Below are positions 2,726 through 34,432 of a stretch of DNA of 64,000 bases, piece by piece (positions within the stretch are counted from its first letter, which is position 1; each line of letters opens with the position of its first letter). The notes beneath the pieces were generated by a model. It saw nothing but the letters and a program-made list of their open reading frames with translations, searched no databases and had not been told where the DNA came from. Source of the DNA: an uncultured Burkholderiales bacterium (GTDB taxonomy: Bacteria > Pseudomonadota > Gammaproteobacteria > Burkholderiales > Burkholderiaceae_C); NCBI GenBank assembly GCA_903870145.1, contig CAIQBO010000030.1, forward strand, positions 6,823 through 70,822, given 5' to 3'. The position numbers were made by a program, and so were the translations under genes.

Positions 2726-2763
2726 TAACCTGCAATCCAATTTCATTTTTCCAGGTTTCAAAT

Positions 2764-3222
2764 ATGTCCATTTACCAACGCCTTCAGGCTCTGAATATCG
2801 AACTGCCTGCCGTTGCCGCCCCTGCCGCGGCCTACGTGCCTTTTGTGCGCAGCGGGAATTTGATTTTCCTCAGCGGCCATATTGCCAAGAAAGACGGCAA
2901 GGTCTGGACCGGGCAGTTAGGCAAAACCATGCAAACCTCTGAAGCCCAAACCGCGGCTCGTGCGGTGGCGATTGATTTGATGGGTACTTTGCACGCTGCC
3001 GTGGGCGACCTAAACAAAGTAGAGCGCATCGTCAAAGTCATGAGTTTGGTCAATTCCAGCCCCGACTTCACAGAGCATCACTTGGTCACCAACGGCTGTA
3101 GCGAGCTGTTGGGGCAAATTTTTGGCCCCGAGATTGGCGCCCACGCCCGCAGCGCCTTTGGCGTAGCGCAATTGCCCATGGGCACATGCGTTGAAATTGA
3201 ACTGATCGCCCAAGTCAGCTGA
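2764..3222 (+). CDS. RidA/YjgF/YER057c family protein
   Basis: AAAYVPFVRSGNLIFLSG, HARSAFG, VEIELI motifs. Confidence 0.88.
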   Translation: MSIYQRLQALNIELPAVAAPAAAYVPFVRSGNLIFLSGHIAKKDGKVWTGQLGKTMQTSEAQTAARAVAIDLMGTLHAAVGDLNKVERIVKVMSLVNSSPDFTEHHLVTNGCSELLGQIFGPEIGAHARSAFGVAQLPMGTCVEIELIAQVS

Positions 3223-3310
3223 AACACCCAGGCTTTCGGGGCTTTCGTTGCTTAAATGCCATGCATGAAAGGCAATGAAATACATCCTGCTGCTCAGAGT
3301 CAAAACCAGG

Positions 3311-3420
3311 TAATTTTGTAAATATAGGTATCAAAGTTTTAAATTTTTTCTTACAATTTTGTGAAAAATAAATTTATTTGGCTATTATGAGCTCTTAAGT
3401 TTTCATATTTAACCAAGGAG
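3311..3420 (+). promoter_or_regulatory. Very AT-rich promoter region with SD (AAGGAG) for the response regulator
   Basis: 23 G/C in 110 nt (about 21% GC) by hand count; AAGGAG at 3415-3420 before ATG 3428. Confidence 0.6.
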
Positions 3421-3427
3421 CTTTGAA

Positions 3428-4117
3428 ATGAACCCACTGCACGTCAGCATCATTGAACAAGACCCGCAACTGGCTGAGCGTGTTGTTGAACGCCTGCAAA
3501 GCGCGGGCATGACGGCCCACCACTGTAGCCAATGTGAAGACTTTGAGCACTACTGCGCTCGCCATCCGGTTGATGTCGTGGTGTTAGATGCCGCCGGGCT
3601 GGGCCAACCCGGGCTTGAAATTGCGGCCCGTTTTGCCAAACACCCCGAAGTGCGGGTGGTCATGGTGGACGCGCACAACGAGGCGCAAGACCGCATCAAC
3701 TCGATCAGCGCGGGCGCTGATGTCTGTTTGCGCAAGCCCTTTGATCCGCAAGAATTGGTGGCCATCGTGCAGCGTTTGGCTTCCCGTTTGCCGCGCACCA
3801 TCAAATCGGGCTGGACACTTGACCCTGCGCGCGCTTTGCTGACAGCCCCCAGCACCAACGCCATTGAATTGACCGCCATGGAAACCGTGCTGCTCACGCA
3901 GTTGGCCATGGCGCCAGACCAAGCCCTTCGAAGCGAAGCGCTGGAGCTGGCGATCTGGGGCCTCTCAGATTACTACAACAACAAACGCCTGCAAGTGTGC
4001 GTCTCGCGCCTGCGTAAAAAACTCATTTGTCGCCACGGCTCCGAGCAGCTCTTGGCCACCTGCTGGCGCTCAACCTACCAGTTTGTGCCGCGCATGCAAT
4101 TTGCACCAGTTTGCTGA
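3428..4117 (+). CDS. Orphan OmpR-family response regulator (REC + winged helix), atypical
   Basis: REC motifs IIEQD, VVLD, GAD..LRKPF; C-terminal LQVCVSRLRKKL recognition helix; no kinase nearby. Confidence 0.8.
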   Translation: MNPLHVSIIEQDPQLAERVVERLQSAGMTAHHCSQCEDFEHYCARHPVDVVVLDAAGLGQPGLEIAARFAKHPEVRVVMVDAHNEAQDRINSISAGADVCLRKPFDPQELVAIVQRLASRLPRTIKSGWTLDPARALLTAPSTNAIELTAMETVLLTQLAMAPDQALRSEALELAIWGLSDYYNNKRLQVCVSRLRKKLICRHGSEQLLATCWRSTYQFVPRMQFAPVC

Positions 4118-26558: not shown

Positions 26559-27350
26559 ATGGTTGTCACCCCTATTTCCCTTCGCCAAGCCGCCCTATTG
26601 CCTTTATTGGAAAGCCATGCCGTGCGCAAAGCACAATTGGCTTTGGCGATCGATACGCGCTTGCCTGTCAGCGCGCAAGAGGCTATCCCAAACCCTGGAG
26701 GAATTCCCGGCCGCCCGGACCGGCCGATCTTGGTGGCGCACACCGAGATGAGGCATCTATCCTTGGCCACTTTGGAGGGCCGTGCAGCCTTGGTTCATTC
26801 GATCGCACACATTGAATTGAATGCCATCGATTTGGCGCTGGATGTGGTCTGGCGATTTGCCGGCATGCCCGATGCGTTTTATTTAGATTGGGTGCAAATT
26901 GCCAAAGAAGAAGCCAAACACTTTTTGCTGCTTCAAAAGCATCTGCAAAGTCTGGGTTTTGACTACGGTGATTTTCCTGCCCATCACGCTTTATGGCAAA
27001 TGGCTGAGCGCACGCAATCGGATTTACTCGCCCGCATTGGTTTGGTGCCGCGCACTTTGGAGGCACGCGGGCTGGACGCCTCTCCTGGCGTGAAAAACAA
27101 ACTTGTGAGCGCGGGCGACATGGTTGCCGGCCAAATTTTGGACATCATTTTGGAAGAAGAAATTGGCCACGTGGCTGCAGGCAATCGCTGGTACCGCTTC
27201 ATTTGCCAAGAGCGGGGCCTAGACCCGATCAGCACTTACAGCGAATTGATTCAAACTTACAAAGCCCCCAAGCTGCGCGCGCCTTACAACCTGGAAGCTC
27301 GGCGCAAAGCCGGATTTGAAGAAGAAGAATTGAACAGACTTGGCGAGTGA
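26559..27350 (+). CDS. Ferritin-like domain protein (DUF455)
   Basis: [47 protein letters not shown]. Confidence 0.88.
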
Positions 27351-27403
27351 GCACTGATCTGAGTTATCTGGTTTATCTGGTCGCCTTGATTTACCCTTGT
27401 TGT

Positions 27404-27417
27404 TTGACTTAGGTCAA
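27404..27417. promoter_or_regulatory. FNR-type binding site upstream of frdA
   Basis: Perfect palindrome TTGAC-TTAG-GTCAA (consensus TTGAT-N4-ATCAA), about 90 nt upstream of the frdA ATG. Confidence 0.72.
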
Positions 27418-27506
27418 TCACCCGAATCCAAAGCAGCAGTCCAATGAACGAAAGGACTGGTGCAGCATGGCCCAGTTCAAATGCAAATCGGCAAGGAACT
27501 CACGCC

Positions 27507-29264
27507 ATGAAGATTGTCAATGTGGATGTGGCCATTGTGGGTGCTGGTGGAGCAGGTTTGCGGGCAGCCATTGCCTTGGCACAAACCGACCCCACTCTGA
27601 AAATTGCACTCATCTCCAAGGTCTACCCGATGCGCAGTCACACCTGCGCAGCCGAGGGCGGAGCCGCGGGCGTAATCAAAGCAGACGACAGTTTTGCACT
27701 GCACTTTGACGACACCGTGGGCGGCGGGGACTGGTTGTCAGATCAAGATTGCGTTGCCTACTTTGTCAAAGAAGCGCCCAAAGAGTTGACCCAACTGGAA
27801 CACTGGGGTTGCCCTTGGAACCGCGAGCCCAATGGCTCTGTGGCCGTGCGCCCATTTGGCGGCATGAAAAAGCAGCGCACTTGGTTTGCAGCTGACAAAT
27901 CAGGCTTTCACATTTTGCACACCTTGTTTCAAACCACCTTGCAGTTTCCCAGCATCAGCCGATTTGATGAATATTTTGCAATCGATTTGCTGGTGGACGA
28001 GGGCCGCTGCCAAGGCTTGACTGCCATCGAAATGTGCAGCGGCATGATGACTCAGTTTCATGCCAAATCAGTGATCATGGCCGGCGGTGGTGCTGGCCGA
28101 ATTTTTCCATTCAGCACCAATGGCGCGATCAAAACCGGCGACGCCATGGCCATGGCCTACCGCGCCGGCGTGCCCCTGAAGGACATGGAGTTTGTGCAAT
28201 ACCACCCCACTGGTTTACCCAACACTGGCAGCCTCTTGACGGAAGCTTGCCGCGGCGAAGGCGGCGTGATGCTCAACAAAAATGGACGGCGCTATTTGCA
28301 AGATTACGGCATGGGGCCAGAGACTCCTTTGGGCAAACCAGAGCTCAAAACCATGGAGTTGGGCCCACGCGATCGGGTCAGCCAAGCCTACTGGCATGAG
28401 CTTCAAAAGGGCAACACGGTCAGCACGCCGTGGGGTGAATGCGTGATGCTGGACATGCGGCATTTGGGTGAAAAAGTCATCAACGAGCGACTGCCCTTGG
28501 TGCGCGAGTTGGCCATTGCCTATTTGGGCGTTGACATCGTGAAAGACCCTGTGCCAATTCGGCCTGTGGTGCATTACATGATGGGCGGCATATCCACCAA
28601 TATGCAAGCCGAAACTGTCTTGCCCGGCTTGTTTGCAGCTGGTGAATGCGCCTGTGTGAGTTTGAATGGGGCGAATCGACTGGGTTCGAACTCTTTGGTC
28701 GAATTGTTGGTGTTTGGCAAATCAGCCGCACTGTCAGCTTTTGCTTATTTGCAAGAACTTCCTGCGCCCAATGCGAAGGCTTTGACAGCGCTTGCTGAGC
28801 AATCACAAGGGCGAATTCGCGCACTTTTTTCACGCACCGATGGGGCCGAGTCGGTGGCAGGTTTGCGCAAAGAAATGATGGACAGCATGGAGAAAAATGT
28901 TGGCATCTATCGCAACGAAGAAGGCTTGAAAGAAGCAGCGCAAGTCATTGAAAATCTCAGAACACGCTACCAGAAGGTGATCCTCACAGACAAAAGCAAT
29001 GTCTTTAACACCGACTTGTTTCAAGTCTTGGAGTTGGGCTCCATGCTCGAGTGCGCCAGCGCCATCACGGTAGGCGCATTGGCGCGAAAAGAATCACGCG
29101 GCGCACACCAGCGTTTAGATTTTGTGGCGCGTGACGATGAGAATTTCTTGTGCCACAGCATGGTTCACTTCAACGGTGATCAAAACCCCACGGTAGACTA
29201 TTTGGATGTCGTGATCACCCAATCACCTCCTGGCGTGCGTGATTATTCAGGAGCCCACTCATGA
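27507..29264 (+). CDS. frdA: Fumarate reductase flavoprotein subunit (E. coli-type)
   Basis: GAGGAG, SKVYPMRSHTCAAEGG (covalent FAD His), AADKSGFHILHTLFQT, QYHPTG, ELGPRD, HYMMGG, GANRLGSNSL, RKESRGAH. Confidence 0.92.
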   Translation: MKIVNVDVAIVGAGGAGLRAAIALAQTDPTLKIALISKVYPMRSHTCAAEGGAAGVIKADDSFALHFDDTVGGGDWLSDQDCVAYFVKEAPKELTQLEHWGCPWNREPNGSVAVRPFGGMKKQRTWFAADKSGFHILHTLFQTTLQFPSISRFDEYFAIDLLVDEGRCQGLTAIEMCSGMMTQFHAKSVIMAGGGAGRIFPFSTNGAIKTGDAMAMAYRAGVPLKDMEFVQYHPTGLPNTGSLLTEACRGEGGVMLNKNGRRYLQDYGMGPETPLGKPELKTMELGPRDRVSQAYWHELQKGNTVSTPWGECVMLDMRHLGEKVINERLPLVRELAIAYLGVDIVKDPVPIRPVVHYMMGGISTNMQAETVLPGLFAAGECACVSLNGANRLGSNSLVELLVFGKSAALSAFAYLQELPAPNAKALTALAEQSQGRIRALFSRTDGAESVAGLRKEMMDSMEKNVGIYRNEEGLKEAAQVIENLRTRYQKVILTDKSNVFNTDLFQVLELGSMLECASAITVGALARKESRGAHQRLDFVARDDENFLCHSMVHFNGDQNPTVDYLDVVITQSPPGVRDYSGAHS

Positions 29265-30007
29265 AGGAACGATTGGTTCAAATTGAAATATTGCGCTACA
29301 ACCCCGAGCAAGACACTGAGCCTTATTTTCAGCTCTACGAAGTTTTGTGCAAGGAAGAGTGGGTGGTGCTGGACGCCCTGAACGCCATCAAAGAAACGGC
29401 CGATCCAACTTTGTCATATCGCTGGTCATGCCACATGGCTGTGTGCGGCAGTTGCGGCATGATGATCAACGGCGAGCCCAAATTGTCTTGCCATGCTTTT
29501 TTGCGCAGTTACGAAGGGGTGATTCGCGTAGAGCCCTTGGTCAATTTCCCCATCGAGAGAGACTTAGTGACCGTGGCGGACGACTTTTTGAAAAAGCTCA
29601 AACGCGTCAAGCCCTATTTGATACCGAAAGAGTCTGAGAAAATTGAAAAAGGCCCTTTCCCGCAAACGCCTGCTCAATTGATGAAGTACCGTCAGTTTTC
29701 AATGTGCATCAACTGCATGCTTTGCTATGCAGCCTGCCCGCAGTACGCACTGCAACCCAAGTTTCTAGGGCCCGCCGCGATCACTTTGGCACACCGCTAC
29801 AACCAAGACTCCCGCGATGGTGGGCGCGCGCAAAGGCAAGAGGAAATTGCCAGCGACGAAGGGGTCTGGGAGTGCTCGTTCGTGGGCGCCTGCTCAGAGG
29901 TCTGCCCCAAAGCCGTAGACCCCGCCGCCGCCTTGCAACAAGTCAAAGTTGCCAGCACTTTGGACTGGTTCAAAGAGCATCTATTGCCACAAGGAGAAAA
30001 GACATGA
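29261..30007 (+). CDS. frdB: Fumarate reductase iron-sulfur subunit
   Basis: YRWSCHMAVCGSCG...C (2Fe-2S), CINCMLCYAACP (4Fe-4S), CSFVGACSEVCPKAVDPAAALQQVK (3Fe-4S); ATGA overlap. Confidence 0.92.
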   Translation: MKERLVQIEILRYNPEQDTEPYFQLYEVLCKEEWVVLDALNAIKETADPTLSYRWSCHMAVCGSCGMMINGEPKLSCHAFLRSYEGVIRVEPLVNFPIERDLVTVADDFLKKLKRVKPYLIPKESEKIEKGPFPQTPAQLMKYRQFSMCINCMLCYAACPQYALQPKFLGPAAITLAHRYNQDSRDGGRAQRQEEIASDEGVWECSFVGACSEVCPKAVDPAAALQQVKVASTLDWFKEHLLPQGEKT

Positions 30008-30396
30008 GCCGCCGTCCTTTCGTTCGTCCTGTTTCTAAAACAGGCTGGTACTTCCAGCACCCTCGCTACCTGCGCTACATGTCACGTGAAATCAGTTGTT
30101 TTTTCATCGGTGCGTTTGCATTGCTGATGGTACTGACGCTGGAGCGTTTGGGGCACGGCCCTGCCGCTTACGAAGCATTTTTAGGCGCTCTTGAAGGGCC
30201 TTGGATGGCATTTTTTCTGTTTCTTATTTTCATCTTCGCCGTGCACAATGCCAGCAGTTGGTTCAACGTGACACCCAAAGCCCTGCCCGTGCAAATGGGT
30301 GAGGAATTTTTGGCAGGCAAATACATTGTGTTGGCGCACTATTTGGTCTGGGCCCTGACCACCCTTGGGGTGTTAATTTTTGCGGGGGTGATATAG
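30004..30396 (+). CDS. frdC: Fumarate reductase membrane anchor subunit C
   Basis: RRPFVRPV..W, YLRYMSRE, H.ASSWFNVTPKA; three TM helices; starts MSRR at 30004. Confidence 0.88.
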   Translation: MSRRPFVRPVSKTGWYFQHPRYLRYMSREISCFFIGAFALLMVLTLERLGHGPAAYEAFLGALEGPWMAFFLFLIFIFAVHNASSWFNVTPKALPVQMGEEFLAGKYIVLAHYLVWALTTLGVLIFAGVI

Positions 30397-30398
30397 CC

Positions 30399-30737
30399 AT
30401 GGCCAAATCAAACAAACCCATCTTTTGGAGCCTGTTTGCTGCAGGGGGCACATTGGCTGCGTTCTTGGCACCCGTGTTGGTTGGATTATTTTTACTCACA
30501 GCACTGGGCCAGACGCCTTCTGTGCTGGGCTATGCCCGGCTGCATGGCTTGACTCAAAATTGGATGGGCAAAATTTTCTTAATGACTGTTGTCACACTGT
30601 TTTTGTGGCATGCAGCGCATCGTTTGCGCATCACTTTACATGATTTAGGCATTCGCCAAGACCCTTGGATCGCCTTGTGCGTTTACCTCTTTGCAGCTAT
30701 CAACACGGGGTTCACGGCACTTTTGTTGCTGCACTGA
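30399..30737 (+). CDS. frdD: Fumarate reductase membrane anchor subunit D
   Basis: KSNKPIFWSLFAAGG, LWHAAHRLRITLHDL; three TM helices. Confidence 0.88.
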   Translation: MAKSNKPIFWSLFAAGGTLAAFLAPVLVGLFLLTALGQTPSVLGYARLHGLTQNWMGKIFLMTVVTLFLWHAAHRLRITLHDLGIRQDPWIALCVYLFAAINTGFTALLLLH

Positions 30738-30776
30738 ACTGTCACTCCACGATTTGATTCGATTGATTTAAATACT

Positions 30777-31580
30777 ATGCAAACTTGGTTAATGATGTTG
30801 CTGTATTCGGCACTGTTCCTCTTGGTTGGAACCGCTTTGTTTTTCTTCACCCTGACGCGGGGCGCATTGTTGTTGCGCTATGCAACAGGCAACACACAGC
30901 ACGACGCCGCCCATGTTTACCCCATTTACGCCAACATGAAGTTGATCAAGTTGATTGATTTTCAACCTCTGATTGGCGCTATTTTGCTGTTCCAATACGA
31001 CCGTTTGGTCAACACCATTGTGGCCGAGCTGGAGCAAATGGATTTGAAAGAGAAGCGCGTTTTGATCACCTCTTGTGCATTTGGCAATGTGATCCCGCTC
31101 GTGGCGCAAGCGGCCAGCGCACAAGGGGTCAAGACTTTGTTGATTGCCGACATCATTCAAAATGAATTGATCAATGCACAGGGGAAACTCAAGGATTTTT
31201 CGGGTGAAATAATTTACTCCGAAGAAAACGCCATCGCCATGAAACAAGCGGACGCATCGGTGAGCGCCAATGTGATTTTCTTTTTGCTCCATGAGCTGCC
31301 CCATCACCTGAAAACACAAGCCCTGCAAGAAGCTGTGCGGGTGCTCGAGCCAGGAGGGAAATTGTTTTTGGCCGAATTTCACCGACCTGACCCCTGGGCC
31401 TTGCGCGCTTTGAGTTGGACTTACTTCAAAGTGTTCGAACCCTATGGCTTGGCGCTGTGGAGCACGCACGACCCCCTGCACCAACTCTGCGCCATGAGGG
31501 GCATTTCATGCCAGCGAAAAACAGTTTTTTTCGGCAATTTTCAAGTGATTGTGGCGACCAAACAAGCGCTTGTCACTTGA
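30777..31580 (+). CDS. rquA: RquA-like rhodoquinone biosynthesis methyltransferase-fold protein
   Basis: Class I MTase fold with degenerate motif I (ITSCAFG, no GxGxG); FFLLHELP, EFHRP, FEPYGLALW, RKTVFFGNFQVIVA; VYP.IYAN..I..ID..LLFQYDRL resembles RquA N-terminus as recalled; 39 nt after frdD. Confidence 0.72.
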   Translation: MQTWLMMLLYSALFLLVGTALFFFTLTRGALLLRYATGNTQHDAAHVYPIYANMKLIKLIDFQPLIGAILLFQYDRLVNTIVAELEQMDLKEKRVLITSCAFGNVIPLVAQAASAQGVKTLLIADIIQNELINAQGKLKDFSGEIIYSEENAIAMKQADASVSANVIFFLLHELPHHLKTQALQEAVRVLEPGGKLFLAEFHRPDPWALRALSWTYFKVFEPYGLALWSTHDPLHQLCAMRGISCQRKTVFFGNFQVIVATKQALVT

Positions 31581-31702
31581 AGGTTCATTTTCGCCGAGGC
31601 TTTGCAGCCGTTGGGTCTATTTCCACTTTGGCATCGATCAGTTACTTGATTAGAATGGTTCAACGTTGAGACACAATCAACCCTCCATTCAAGGCTGTCA
31701 CC

Positions 31703-32968
31703 ATGCAACTGAGCGCTGCACACAAAGGTTTTCCTGGCCACTTGCCCACGATGGACCTGTCTCAAGTGGGTGCCCAATCTTGGGAAATTTTGCAAGGTGA
31801 TTTGCCGCTGCCACTGGCAGTGATCAAAGAATCTGCCTTGCAGCACAACTTGACATGGATGCAGGACTTTTGCCAATCACGCAGTTTAGACATTGCGCCG
31901 AACGGCAAAACCACCATGTCACCCGAGTTGTATGCACGACAACTGGCTGCAGGGGCTTGGGGGATCAGCTTTGCAACTGTTTTTCAGGCTGGTTTGGGTG
32001 CACGCCATGGCGTCAATCGCATCATCATTGCCAATCAAGTCTCCCAAGCAGCTGATCTTGACACTCTGAGCGCGATGCTGGAACACAACAAGGAACTGCA
32101 GATTTATTTTTTAATTGATTCGATTGCGCAATTGGAGGCTATAGAACAGTGGCGCAGAGACCGCAGCAGCAGCACAGTGTTCACCACTCTCTTGGAATTA
32201 GGCATTGATGGCAAACGAACAGGCTGCAGGACGCATGGGCAAGCCATTGCGTTGGCGGAAAAAATTCACCAAAGTCCTGCAGCACGTTTGTGCGGTATTG
32301 AATGTTACGAAGGCGCTTTGGCAACCTGCAACCACGCGCACGACTCAAACACTGTTGCCGCCTTGATGCACCGAGTGCAACAAGTTGCAATAGATTGCGA
32401 AGCCGCTGATTTTTTTGACAACGACGAGGTCTTGCTCACGGCAGGCGGCTCGGCAATTTTTGATTTGATTGCAAAAAATCTAAAACCCTATCTTCAACGC
32501 CCTGCACGCGGTATATTGCGCTCAGGTTGCTACCTCACCCACGATCACGTGTTTTATAAAAAAATGCTGCAATGCGTTGGGGAGCGCTTGCAGTTGCGCG
32601 AGACATTAAAACCCGCTCTGGAAGTCCTCAGCAGTGTTCAGTCTTGTCCTGAGCCCGGCTTGGCTTTGCTGAGTATGGGCAAACGGGATGTATCTTATGA
32701 CTTGAACATGCCGGTGCCTTTGTGGCGAGCCAAACTGGGTGACAGCAAAGTCTGTGAAGTGCCTTCGCATTGGGAAATTTTCGACCTGAACGATCAGCAC
32801 GCGTACCTCTGTTTCGATGCCCTCTCGCCCTCAAGCGAACACCCCCATGTGGGTCTTTTGGTGGGCAGCGGCATCTCTCACCCTTGTACCACTTTTGACA
32901 AATGGCGCTGGATGCCTGTAGTCAATGACAACTACCGCGTAGTGGATGCCATTTCAATTCACTTTTGA
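31703..32968 (+). CDS. PLP-dependent D-serine/D-amino-sugar-acid dehydratase (DSD1-like, amino acid deaminase)
   Basis: APNGKTTMSP (PLP Lys), GIECYEG, LRSGCYLTHD, GKRDVSYD, NDQH, GISHPCTTFDKW. Confidence 0.8.
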   Translation: MQLSAAHKGFPGHLPTMDLSQVGAQSWEILQGDLPLPLAVIKESALQHNLTWMQDFCQSRSLDIAPNGKTTMSPELYARQLAAGAWGISFATVFQAGLGARHGVNRIIIANQVSQAADLDTLSAMLEHNKELQIYFLIDSIAQLEAIEQWRRDRSSSTVFTTLLELGIDGKRTGCRTHGQAIALAEKIHQSPAARLCGIECYEGALATCNHAHDSNTVAALMHRVQQVAIDCEAADFFDNDEVLLTAGGSAIFDLIAKNLKPYLQRPARGILRSGCYLTHDHVFYKKMLQCVGERLQLRETLKPALEVLSSVQSCPEPGLALLSMGKRDVSYDLNMPVPLWRAKLGDSKVCEVPSHWEIFDLNDQHAYLCFDALSPSSEHPHVGLLVGSGISHPCTTFDKWRWMPVVNDNYRVVDAISIHF

Positions 32969-33007
32969 TAGCAGCAGCACGAAATCATCCGCTTCTTGAA
33001 AGTACAC

Positions 33008-34432
33008 ATGAAAAAAACCCTGTTGCGCAACGCCGTTTTCATTGATGGCACTGGCGCAGGCGCACGGCGATGCGACATTCTTCTCCAGGGTGATCGCGTT
33101 GCGGGCATAGGCGACGCACTTGCGTTGCCGTCCGACGAAACCATCGACTGCCAGGGCTTGACCCTGAGCCCCGGTTTTATCGATGTGCACACCCACGACG
33201 ATGCCCAAGTGCTGCGCGACCCCAGCATGTTGGCCAAAATATCACAAGGGGTCACCACCGTGATCACGGGCAATTGCGGCTTGTCTCTGGTGCCACTGAT
33301 CACCCAAAACCCAACCCCTCCTTTGGATCTTTTGCACACCACGGAGTTCAAATACCCCAGCATGGCCTTGTATGCACAAGCAGTCCGAGCCAGTGGTTCG
33401 GCCGTCAATGTGGGCGCATTGGTTGGGCACACGGCTTTGCGTGCGGCAGTGATGCCAGACTTGAGTCAAGCGGCCACCGATGCGCAAATCAAGCTCATGT
33501 CCTCGCATTTGGATGCCGCCATGCAAGAGGGGGCTTTGGGCATGTCATCAGGCTTGTTTTACAAACCGGCTGAAGGGGCCAATCTGCATGAAATGACATC
33601 TCTCGCGCGTGTTGTGGGTCACCACGGCGGTGTGTATGTCACGCATTTGCGAACAGAAATGGACGACATCATTGCCGCCATGCACGAGGCTGCACAAACA
33701 GCCAAGGTCGCACGCACGCCTTGGATTTTGTCTCATCACAAATGTGCCGGCCCAAAAAATTGGGGGCGCAGCATAGAAACGCTGGCTTTGCTTGAACGCC
33801 TAGGCCAATCGCAAGAAGTCGGCTTAGATGCCTATCCCTACACGGCTGGCTCTACACTTTTGCGCGAAGATTTGGTCGACGGCGTGATCCAGATTCTGAT
33901 CACGCGCAGTCAAACACACCCCGAAATGGCGGGTCGTTATTTGGAGGACATTGCGCAAACCTGGGGCGTGAGCCAACTGCAAGCTTGTCAGCGTTTGATG
34001 CCGGGGGGGGCCTGTTATTTTCAAATGCACGAGGAGGATGTCCGACGTATTTTGGCGCATCCTTTGACCATGATTGGCTCGGACGGTCTGCCTCATGACG
34101 AGAAACCCCACCCACGTTTATGGGGTGCCTTTGCGCGCGTTTTGGCACACTACTGCCGAGATGAAAAATTAATCAGTCTGCCCCAAGCCATCCACAAAAT
34201 GACGGGGCTATCAGCGCAGCGTTTTGGCCTGAAAGACCGAGGCGTCTTGCGGGAAGGCGCCTTTGCCGACCTGGTTTTGTTTGACCCTTTGGAAATTCAA
34301 GACAAAGCCAGCTACGAGCAACCCCATCAAATGTGCCAAGGCATTCACCGCGTGATGGTCAATGGGCAATGGGCATTTGCCAATGGCCAATCTCAAGGCA
34401 AGGGACAAGGCCGCTTCTTACCAAGGTCCTAA
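33008..34432 (+). CDS. N-acyl-D-amino-acid deacylase (D-aminoacylase)
   Basis: PGFIDVHTHDD, GNCG, THLR, SHHK, DAYPY, GSDG, HPRLWGAFARVL. Confidence 0.9.
   Translation: MKKTLLRNAVFIDGTGAGARRCDILLQGDRVAGIGDALALPSDETIDCQGLTLSPGFIDVHTHDDAQVLRDPSMLAKISQGVTTVITGNCGLSLVPLITQNPTPPLDLLHTTEFKYPSMALYAQAVRASGSAVNVGALVGHTALRAAVMPDLSQAATDAQIKLMSSHLDAAMQEGALGMSSGLFYKPAEGANLHEMTSLARVVGHHGGVYVTHLRTEMDDIIAAMHEAAQTAKVARTPWILSHHKCAGPKNWGRSIETLALLERLGQSQEVGLDAYPYTAGSTLLREDLVDGVIQILITRSQTHPEMAGRYLEDIAQTWGVSQLQACQRLMPGGACYFQMHEEDVRRILAHPLTMIGSDGLPHDEKPHPRLWGAFARVLAHYCRDEKLISLPQAIHKMTGLSAQRFGLKDRGVLREGAFADLVLFDPLEIQDKASYEQPHQMCQGIHRVMVNGQWAFANGQSQGKGQGRFLPRS

Follow-up and report, generated by a model that had tools for sequence, protein, structure and literature searches.

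The gene that directly follows frdD in the window (the whole 64,000-nucleotide stretch of DNA analysed here) raises the question of whether a methyltransferase-like protein that begins with a strongly hydrophobic helix can be a rhodoquinone biosynthesis enzyme, RquA, and of what such a helix would be for. Rhodoquinone (RQ) lets organisms that have only ubiquinone (UQ) respire fumarate without oxygen. The original prediction was a distinct membrane-tethered RquA subfamily, possibly docking near the fumarate reductase (Frd) anchors or having altered chemistry. The ORF is likely to encode a functional, membrane-anchored RquA of a sister clade (hereafter the TM clade), the quinone supplier of a horizontally acquired frdABCD-rquA cassette for fumarate respiration. 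The features of the locus are collected in Table 1.

Table 1 Features of the frdABCD-rquA region, in window coordinates
Feature	Position	Strand	Remarks
Putative acquired cassette, approximately 4.4 kb (FNR box, frdABCD, rquA)	27350..31700	+	Absent from three same-genus genomes with syntenic flanks
FNR/CRP-family palindrome TTGACTTAGGTCAA	27404..27417		104 nt before the likely frdA start codon (ATG 27507)
frdA, fumarate reductase flavoprotein	27444..29264	+	Likely true start ATG at 27507
frdB, iron-sulfur subunit	29261..30007	+	4-nt overlap with frdA; NF009051, 373 bits (cut-off 333)
frdC, membrane anchor subunit	30004..30396	+	130 aa; 4-nt overlap with frdB
frdD, membrane anchor subunit	30399..30737	+	PF02313, 102.8 bits; NF003977, 84 bits (cut-off 60)
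rquA paralog, TM-anchored clade	30777..31580	+	267 aa; best match NF038261
Hydrophobic core of the N-terminal helix, L5-L26	30789..30854	+	Uncharged stretch; AlphaFold2 helix
Juxtamembrane motif ALFFFTLTRGAL, residues 20-31	30834..30869	+	Low column entropy
RquA-type motif I RVLITSCAFGN, residues 94-104	31056..31088	+	Aligns to canonical VLQVACVYGN
D125, acidic residue ending beta-2	31149..31151	+	Equivalent to R. rubrum D118, SAM ribose contact
N151, second SAM-site Asp position, near adenine	31227..31229	+	Equivalent to R. rubrum D143

The strings on which the prediction was based are all found in the ORF translation: the hydrophobic residues 4-33 (WLMMLLYSALFLLVGTALFFFTLTRGALLL), ITSCAFG at residues 97-103, LIADII with D125 at residues 122-127 and EENA with N151 at residues 149-152. 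A true start downstream of the helix, which would have refuted the prediction, was ruled out, since the position of an M-x-x-W start is common to every ortholog, the ortholog differences within codons 1-45 are biased towards third positions (25-32, vs 10-17 at second positions), and F23 and T27 are invariant. The next in-frame methionine is M54, and a start there would remove conserved sequence. No Shine-Dalgarno-like sequence was evident in the 39-nt spacer between frdD and the rquA ATG (30738-30776); in orthologs, AAGGAA is found 6-9 nt 5' of the start codon. Translation of the window rquA may be weak, or dependent on the upstream cistron.

The best match of the predicted protein was the NCBIfam RquA equivalog model NF038261, with 121.9 bits (E 3e-35), below the model cut-off of 175 bits. 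Members of the TM clade score 106-122 bits with this model and canonical RquAs about 300-318 bits. The AlphaFold2 model (pLDDT 82.4) has the beta/alpha core of the class I SAM-methyltransferase (Rossmann) fold, and its top Foldseek matches were Coq5, CmoA and RebM, the best PDB entry being SAM-bound yeast Coq5. Generic Pfam matches (Ubie_methyltran with 35.7 bits, also Methyltransf_25 and Methyltransf_11) and the database names of relatives, 'class I SAM-dependent methyltransferase' or 'UbiE', would suit a C-methyltransferase of the common UbiE/MenG type, or some other methyltransferase with no more than a likeness to RquA. This is hardly credible, however, as the RquA-type SCAFGN stands in place of the glycine-rich motif I, the RquA model gives 122 bits vs 46 bits for UbiE, the genome has a genuine UbiE gene at another site and two members of the clade produce RQ8 in E. 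coli (see below).

Motif I of the window protein has the RquA form xxCx[FY]GN instead of GxGxG, and C100, G103 and N104 are invariant across the TM clade and canonical RquA in a joint alignment. The FFLLHE.P block, E185, R188, PGG, H202, P204, E221, P222, W228 and Q256 are also invariant in both clades. The Asp of D125 is kept by 135 of the 136 clade members, and its column does not vary when the protein is aligned with canonical RquA. These common invariants indicate that the catalytic core is RquA-like and that motif I is only mildly different. The canonical motif I given in the original prediction, VACVYG, agrees with that of canonical Rhodoferax RquA, in which VLQVACVYGN is followed by LSVIDV after motif I and by QQDAS at the next acidic position. 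The second Asp expected of an RquA is present in canonical RquAs and replaced by Asn in the window protein; position 151 is Asn in 121 and Asp in 15 of the 136 clade members. The equivalence of these positions to R. rubrum D118 and D143 was derived from motif position and from the spacing of the two Asp residues in canonical Rhodoferax RquA (25 residues, as between D118 and D143), not from an alignment with the R. rubrum protein. The claim of an altered SAM motif holds in so far as the motif differs from the canonical one and Asn occupies position 151; the alteration is a mild one. The D118A/D143A double mutant of R. rubrum RquA is inactive, only the double mutant having been tested, and the first 40 residues are dispensable (Neupane 2022). 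The same work describes R. rubrum RquA as a detergent-requiring, probably monotopic membrane protein and shows that RquA uses SAM as the amino donor and needs Mn2+ (Neupane 2022).

The hydrophobic segment at the N-terminus has a Kyte-Doolittle mean of 2.28 over 19 residues, and AlphaFold2 predicts a single helix of residues 3-37, followed by a low-confidence linker (residues 38-46) before the methyltransferase core. The possibility that most RquA homologs already carry such a helix proved true of the TM clade and false of canonical RquA: the helix segment and an FFFxxTRG motif are present in 136 of 136 clade members, whereas a TM-like segment is absent from all 56 canonical RquA-like representatives, so the helix is not a chance feature. 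F23 and T27 are invariant in the 136 relatives, down to 26 % identity. The mean column entropy of residues 20-31 (0.54) is the same as that of SAM motif I, and the outer part of the helix (residues 5-19) and the linker (residues 32-45) are variable, with entropies of 1.78 and 1.89, respectively. Across the 136 relatives the uncharged N-terminal stretch has a median length of 26 amino acids, and the net charge of the helix flanks is 0 on the N-terminal and +2.1 on the C-terminal side. This asymmetry fits a predicted N-out/C-in topology with a cytoplasmic catalytic domain. A Sec signal peptide was considered as an alternative and rejected, because the n-region lacks positive charge, the uncharged stretch extends over 26 residues, positively charged residues come after the helix and a domain that depends on SAM has to lie in the cytoplasm.

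A word-indexed search returned 1565 relatives. The best 120 of these have 65-73 % identity at 99 % query coverage and a length of about 265 amino acids; they belong to Rhodoferax or Comamonadaceae, and those that bear a name are annotated as "class I SAM-dependent methyltransferase" or "UbiE". An exhaustive HMMER search over 50 %-identity representatives divided the relatives into two sets. Those in the first have 26-57 % identity, align from residues 3-19 and start with a hydrophobic N-terminus followed by FFFxxTRG. Those in the second have approximately 30 % identity, align only from residue 50 and start with IPxYL..YWWAY, without the hydrophobic segment. A maximum-likelihood tree rooted on the UbiE of the window genome resolves two sister groups, the TM/FFF clade with 36 rows (SH-aLRT 94) and canonical RquA with 57 rows (SH-aLRT 89), and the window protein is sister to the protein of another frd-linked locus, L010 (support 99). 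Residues F23, T27, Y48, Y51, D61, G103, H172 and E173 are invariant in the 136 clade members. The predicted membrane-tethered subfamily is thus borne out as a sister clade of canonical RquA as a whole, with helix and FFFxxTRG universal among its members.

The subfamily is not unique to the window genome, and members of it have already been sampled and assayed. A clade relative is encoded in 257 species genomes, mostly of Rhodoferax, as found with an alignment of seven closer sequences as query, and the TM clade comprises well over a thousand protein clusters. Clade members appear in Stairs 2018 as the 'Proteobacteria clade', outside the labelled RQUA set; both of the clade proteins assayed by Chobert 2024 are in that list, with RquA-HMM E-values of approximately 1e-35 to 1e-36, and the RquA HMM of Chobert 2024 includes the TM clade. 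The NCBI name of the canonical RquA of Rhodoferax ferrireducens T118 (WP_011465688.1) is 'rhodoquinone biosynthesis methyltransferase RquA', and every one of the clade members, P0285, P0297, P0308 and others, is named 'class I SAM-dependent methyltransferase'. The 175-bit cut-off of NF038261 is the cause of this annotation gap. No mention of a transmembrane segment in RquA, or of the N-terminal helix and conserved juxtamembrane motif, was found in the literature searched, and the anchor and motif of the clade, its FNR association and the paralog swap described below appear to be undescribed.

The neighbourhoods of divergent clade members (P0121, P0123, P0125, P0130 and P0145) were short or uninformative. 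The deep member P0145, 32 % identical to the window protein, is encoded at positions 2760-3557 of locus L118 (GCA_054009735.1, JBPNAQ010000059.1) and adjoins UPF0182, CNNM/CBS and Gmad2 genes. The surroundings are thus of non-proteobacterial appearance, suggesting the possibility that the deep clade occurs in organisms without ubiquinone.

Two clade members have been expressed in E. coli. WP_011464464.1 from R. ferrireducens T118 falls into the same 90 % cluster as the clade protein of locus L030, and WP_078365509.1 from R. fermentans into the same one as those of L063 and L058; alignment with the window protein, ungapped and over the full length, gives 67 and 66 % identity, respectively. The T118 protein gave an RQ8 value of 21.2 ± 0.5 (n = 4) and the R. 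fermentans protein 154 ± 95 (n = 9, range 77-295) (Chobert 2024, PMC11707229, Table S2). Strong canonical RquAs gave 150-390, the canonical R. fermentans enzyme 206, and the empty vector 0 in nine listed values, the stated mean of 1.2 implying approximately 12 for one unlisted sample (PMC11707229, Table S2). A change of chemistry, as had been suggested, finds no support in these data: both assayed clade members make RQ8, including the T118 protein with its Asn at position 151. The signal of the T118 protein, the only assayed member with this Asn, is approximately 10 % of that of strong RquAs, and the strong R. fermentans protein has Asp at this position; with two data points, the association of D151 with the stronger and N151 with the weaker protein is anecdotal. 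A second T118 protein tested by Chobert 2024, WP_166485868.1, gave an RQ8 value of 3.5 (PMC11707229, Table S2). The canonical RquA recovered from T118 is WP_011465688.1.

The window rquA stands behind a complete set of frd genes. FrdA matches NF006686 with 938 bits (cut-off 854), with an alignment that starts at residue 22, and contains the Pfam domains FAD_binding_2 and Succ_DH_flav_C; FrdC is 66-75 % identical to FrdC of related operons. No terminator-like site was found within the 39-nt frdD-rquA spacer, and frdABCD and rquA are probably co-transcribed. Among the best 80 loci, frdABCD lies directly 5' of the clade gene only in three (L010, L034 and L064); in the remaining 77 the clade gene is stand-alone, with variable neighbours. 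A further frd-rquA linkage, with a different gene order, is found in a genome of the same order (L007/L110, G031:C22:19481-23421), where one contig carries frdD and, approximately 3 kb upstream of it, an RquA-like gene whose product has 27 % identity to the window protein.

The RquA model was searched against 12 genomes of clade loci. All nine genomes with the unlinked form contain both a canonical RquA (303-318 bits) and a clade paralog (111-121 bits). The three genomes with the frd-linked form contain only the clade paralog and no canonical RquA, and the same is true of the window genome (2.89 Mb, 99.99 % complete), in which no other RquA-like gene was found above background. In G050 and G051, an orthologous frdABCD is followed directly after frdD by a canonical RquA (L113, G050:C2:997500-1006500, and L114, G051:C4:760000-769000), and the clade copy is located elsewhere. 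The canonical RquA after frdD is 28 % identical to the window protein. FrdA from these two operons is 84 % identical to that of the window, compared with 84-87 % for FrdA from the TM-linked operons. This exchange of paralogs in place after frdD is strong contextual evidence that the two forms are functionally equivalent.

The gene arrangement also bears on the purpose of the helix. The window rquA comes directly after frdC and frdD, as does the clade gene in three other genomes, and a helix docking the enzyme specifically against the FrdC/FrdD anchors would be consistent with this. Such docking, raised in the original prediction, is nevertheless very unlikely, given that 77 of 80 orthologs are not beside frd, that FrdD is absent from four of the 12 clade-bearing genomes (G042, G043, G045 and G046), in which helix and motif are equally conserved, and that orthologous frd operons work with a canonical RquA, which has no anchor, at the corresponding position. 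The presence of the clade protein in FrdD-less genomes indicates that the helix anchor is not Frd-specific.

FrdD and the clade protein were absent from all 24 same-genus genomes searched. In one of these, G016, the sequences corresponding to window positions 27341 and 34436 are adjacent, and in two others, G001 and G006, a DSD-like gene (about 31699-32977) is kept and 27342-31698 is missing. Synteny with these three genomes thus indicates that the cassette is a discrete insertion of approximately 4.4 kb. No flanking repeats were seen at its borders. The GC content is 0.49-0.51 in the cassette region vs 0.52-0.56 in the flanks, which gives weak support to a foreign origin; the case for acquisition is based on synteny. 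A D-aminoacylase-like amidohydrolase gene at 32996-34432, absent from G001, G006 and G016, is a separate insertion or deletion; the DSD-like gene next to it, at 31703-32968, is found in G001 and G006. The window genome encodes UbiG (276 bits, over the cut-off) and, elsewhere in the genome, UbiE, and the menaquinone prenyltransferase MenA was not found in it. With UQ genes present and MenA absent, the E. coli-type Frd would have no menaquinol donor and would need RQ.

Within the 64-kb window, TTGAY-N4-RTCAA is matched once, by the palindrome with which the cassette begins. Shuffled sequence also contains a match fairly often (37 of 100 shuffles). With a threshold of at least 9 of 10 positions of this consensus (background 0.037 per 250 nt), FNR-type boxes were found 85-138 nt upstream in 58 of 77 stand-alone clade genes (loci L011-L089), and in the R. 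fermentans/antarcticus subgroup the clade gene has an 8/10 FNR-type site at about -95. In nine canonical rquA genes from genomes of the same kind, two of them inside frd operons, no box of this type was present within 500 nt. This suggests that the TM-clade paralog may belong to an anaerobic FNR regulon. Among the other frd-linked operons, no box of at least 9/10 was found at L010, L034, L113 and L114, and L064 has one 680 nt upstream. The FNR box is not a general feature of frd-linked operons.

The distribution of paralogs and boxes has to be weighed against another explanation, namely that the clade protein is a sub-functionalised paralog whose main activity is not bulk UQ-to-RQ conversion, the RQ8 formed in E. 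coli being a side or partial activity. It might use another quinone substrate or tail length, act under another condition or have a regulatory or low-flux role. Both paralogs are kept in all nine unlinked Rhodoferax-type genomes, the T118 clade protein reaches approximately 21 units vs 150-390 for strong RquAs, and the clade has invariants of its own that are missing in canonical RquA (F23, T27, Y48 and H46). The FNR-type boxes at 58 of 77 clade genes vs none of nine canonical ones, and the contexts of deep members, uninformative and in one case possibly non-proteobacterial, can be read in the same way. The R. fermentans clade protein, however, with 77-295 units, is comparable to the canonical R. 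fermentans enzyme (206), the clade protein can take the operon slot of canonical RquA, in which case the genome encodes no other RquA, and the invariants of the catalytic core are common to canonical RquA. Sub-functionalisation is accordingly regarded as improbable.

The preferred explanation remains a functional membrane-anchored RquA. The window enzyme would transfer an amino group from SAM to ubiquinone to give rhodoquinone. Its N-terminal helix would hold it at the inner membrane, with the catalytic domain on the cytoplasmic side, where SAM is available, and the FFFxxTRG motif at the cytoplasmic end of the helix. The rquA gene would be the last cistron of an frdABCD-rquA operon behind an FNR-type box, and RquA would supply the low-potential quinone for an E. 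coli-type fumarate reductase. The cassette would then be a self-sufficient unit of anaerobic fumarate respiration gained by horizontal transfer. Several observations count against this explanation. The NF038261 score is below 175 bits, Asn replaces the D143-equivalent Asp, and the only assayed member with this Asn gave approximately 10 % of the strong RquA signal. The window protein diverges by 33-34 % from the assayed members, its gene has no evident Shine-Dalgarno sequence, and the FNR box is absent or weak at other frd-linked operons. That most Rhodoferax genomes keep both paralogs hints that the two are not fully redundant. Judged from sequence and genome context together, the window protein is very probably a working RquA.

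A different reading of the clade as a whole is conceivable, if rather unlikely: the TM clade may be a dedicated, FNR-controlled anaerobic RquA isozyme, in which FFFxxTRG forms part of the path of the ubiquinone head group from the bilayer to the active site. If true, the mechanism would be distinct from the monotopic hydrophobic patch of canonical RquA, and the presence of both paralogs in most Rhodoferax, either of which can serve an frd operon, would be explained.

A functional window RquA would have consequences for annotation and biochemistry. Genome surveys infer the ability to make RQ from the presence of rquA, and the NCBI RquA model misses the whole TM clade, so genomes whose only RquA is of the TM clade, the window genome among them, are counted as lacking the ability to make RQ. 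Since RquA is difficult to keep in solution, a form with a natural membrane anchor could be of use in its biochemistry and structure determination. The 4.4-kb cassette would illustrate how one transfer can equip a freshwater aerobe for fumarate respiration without oxygen.

Among known systems, the nearest are the two assayed clade proteins. R. fermentans WP_078365509.1 and T118 WP_011464464.1 have, like the window protein, the N-terminal helix, FFFxxTRG, VLITSCAFGN and D125, and the T118 protein also shares N151, whereas the R. fermentans protein differs from the window protein in having Asp at this position. Unlike the window gene, their genes occur singly amid housekeeping genes, in genomes that also have a canonical RquA. 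Canonical RquA (R. rubrum Rru_A3227/Q2RPC3, NF038261, Groups A and B of Stairs 2018) shares with the window protein the SAM-methyltransferase fold, xxCx[FY]GN, the beta-2 Asp, the FFLLHE.P block and the other core invariants, as well as an RquA-specific extension, homologous in the two, that precedes the Rossmann core. Its gene is often linked to complex II/frd genes, and the protein is presumed to be membrane-associated. It is, however, only 24-29 % identical to the window protein, has Asp at the D143-equivalent position where the window protein has Asn, and has a polar, poorly predicted N-terminus with the IPxYL..YWWAY motif and no TM-like segment. More distant are Coq5 and UbiE, which resemble RquA in being quinone-modifying SAM enzymes that work at the membrane; yeast Coq5 (PDB 4obw) matches the model of the window RquA with a Foldseek E-value of 8e-11, a TM-score of approximately 0.6-0.7 and 13-14 % identity. 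In contrast to the window protein, Coq5 and UbiE have a GxGxG motif I and transfer a methyl rather than an amino group.
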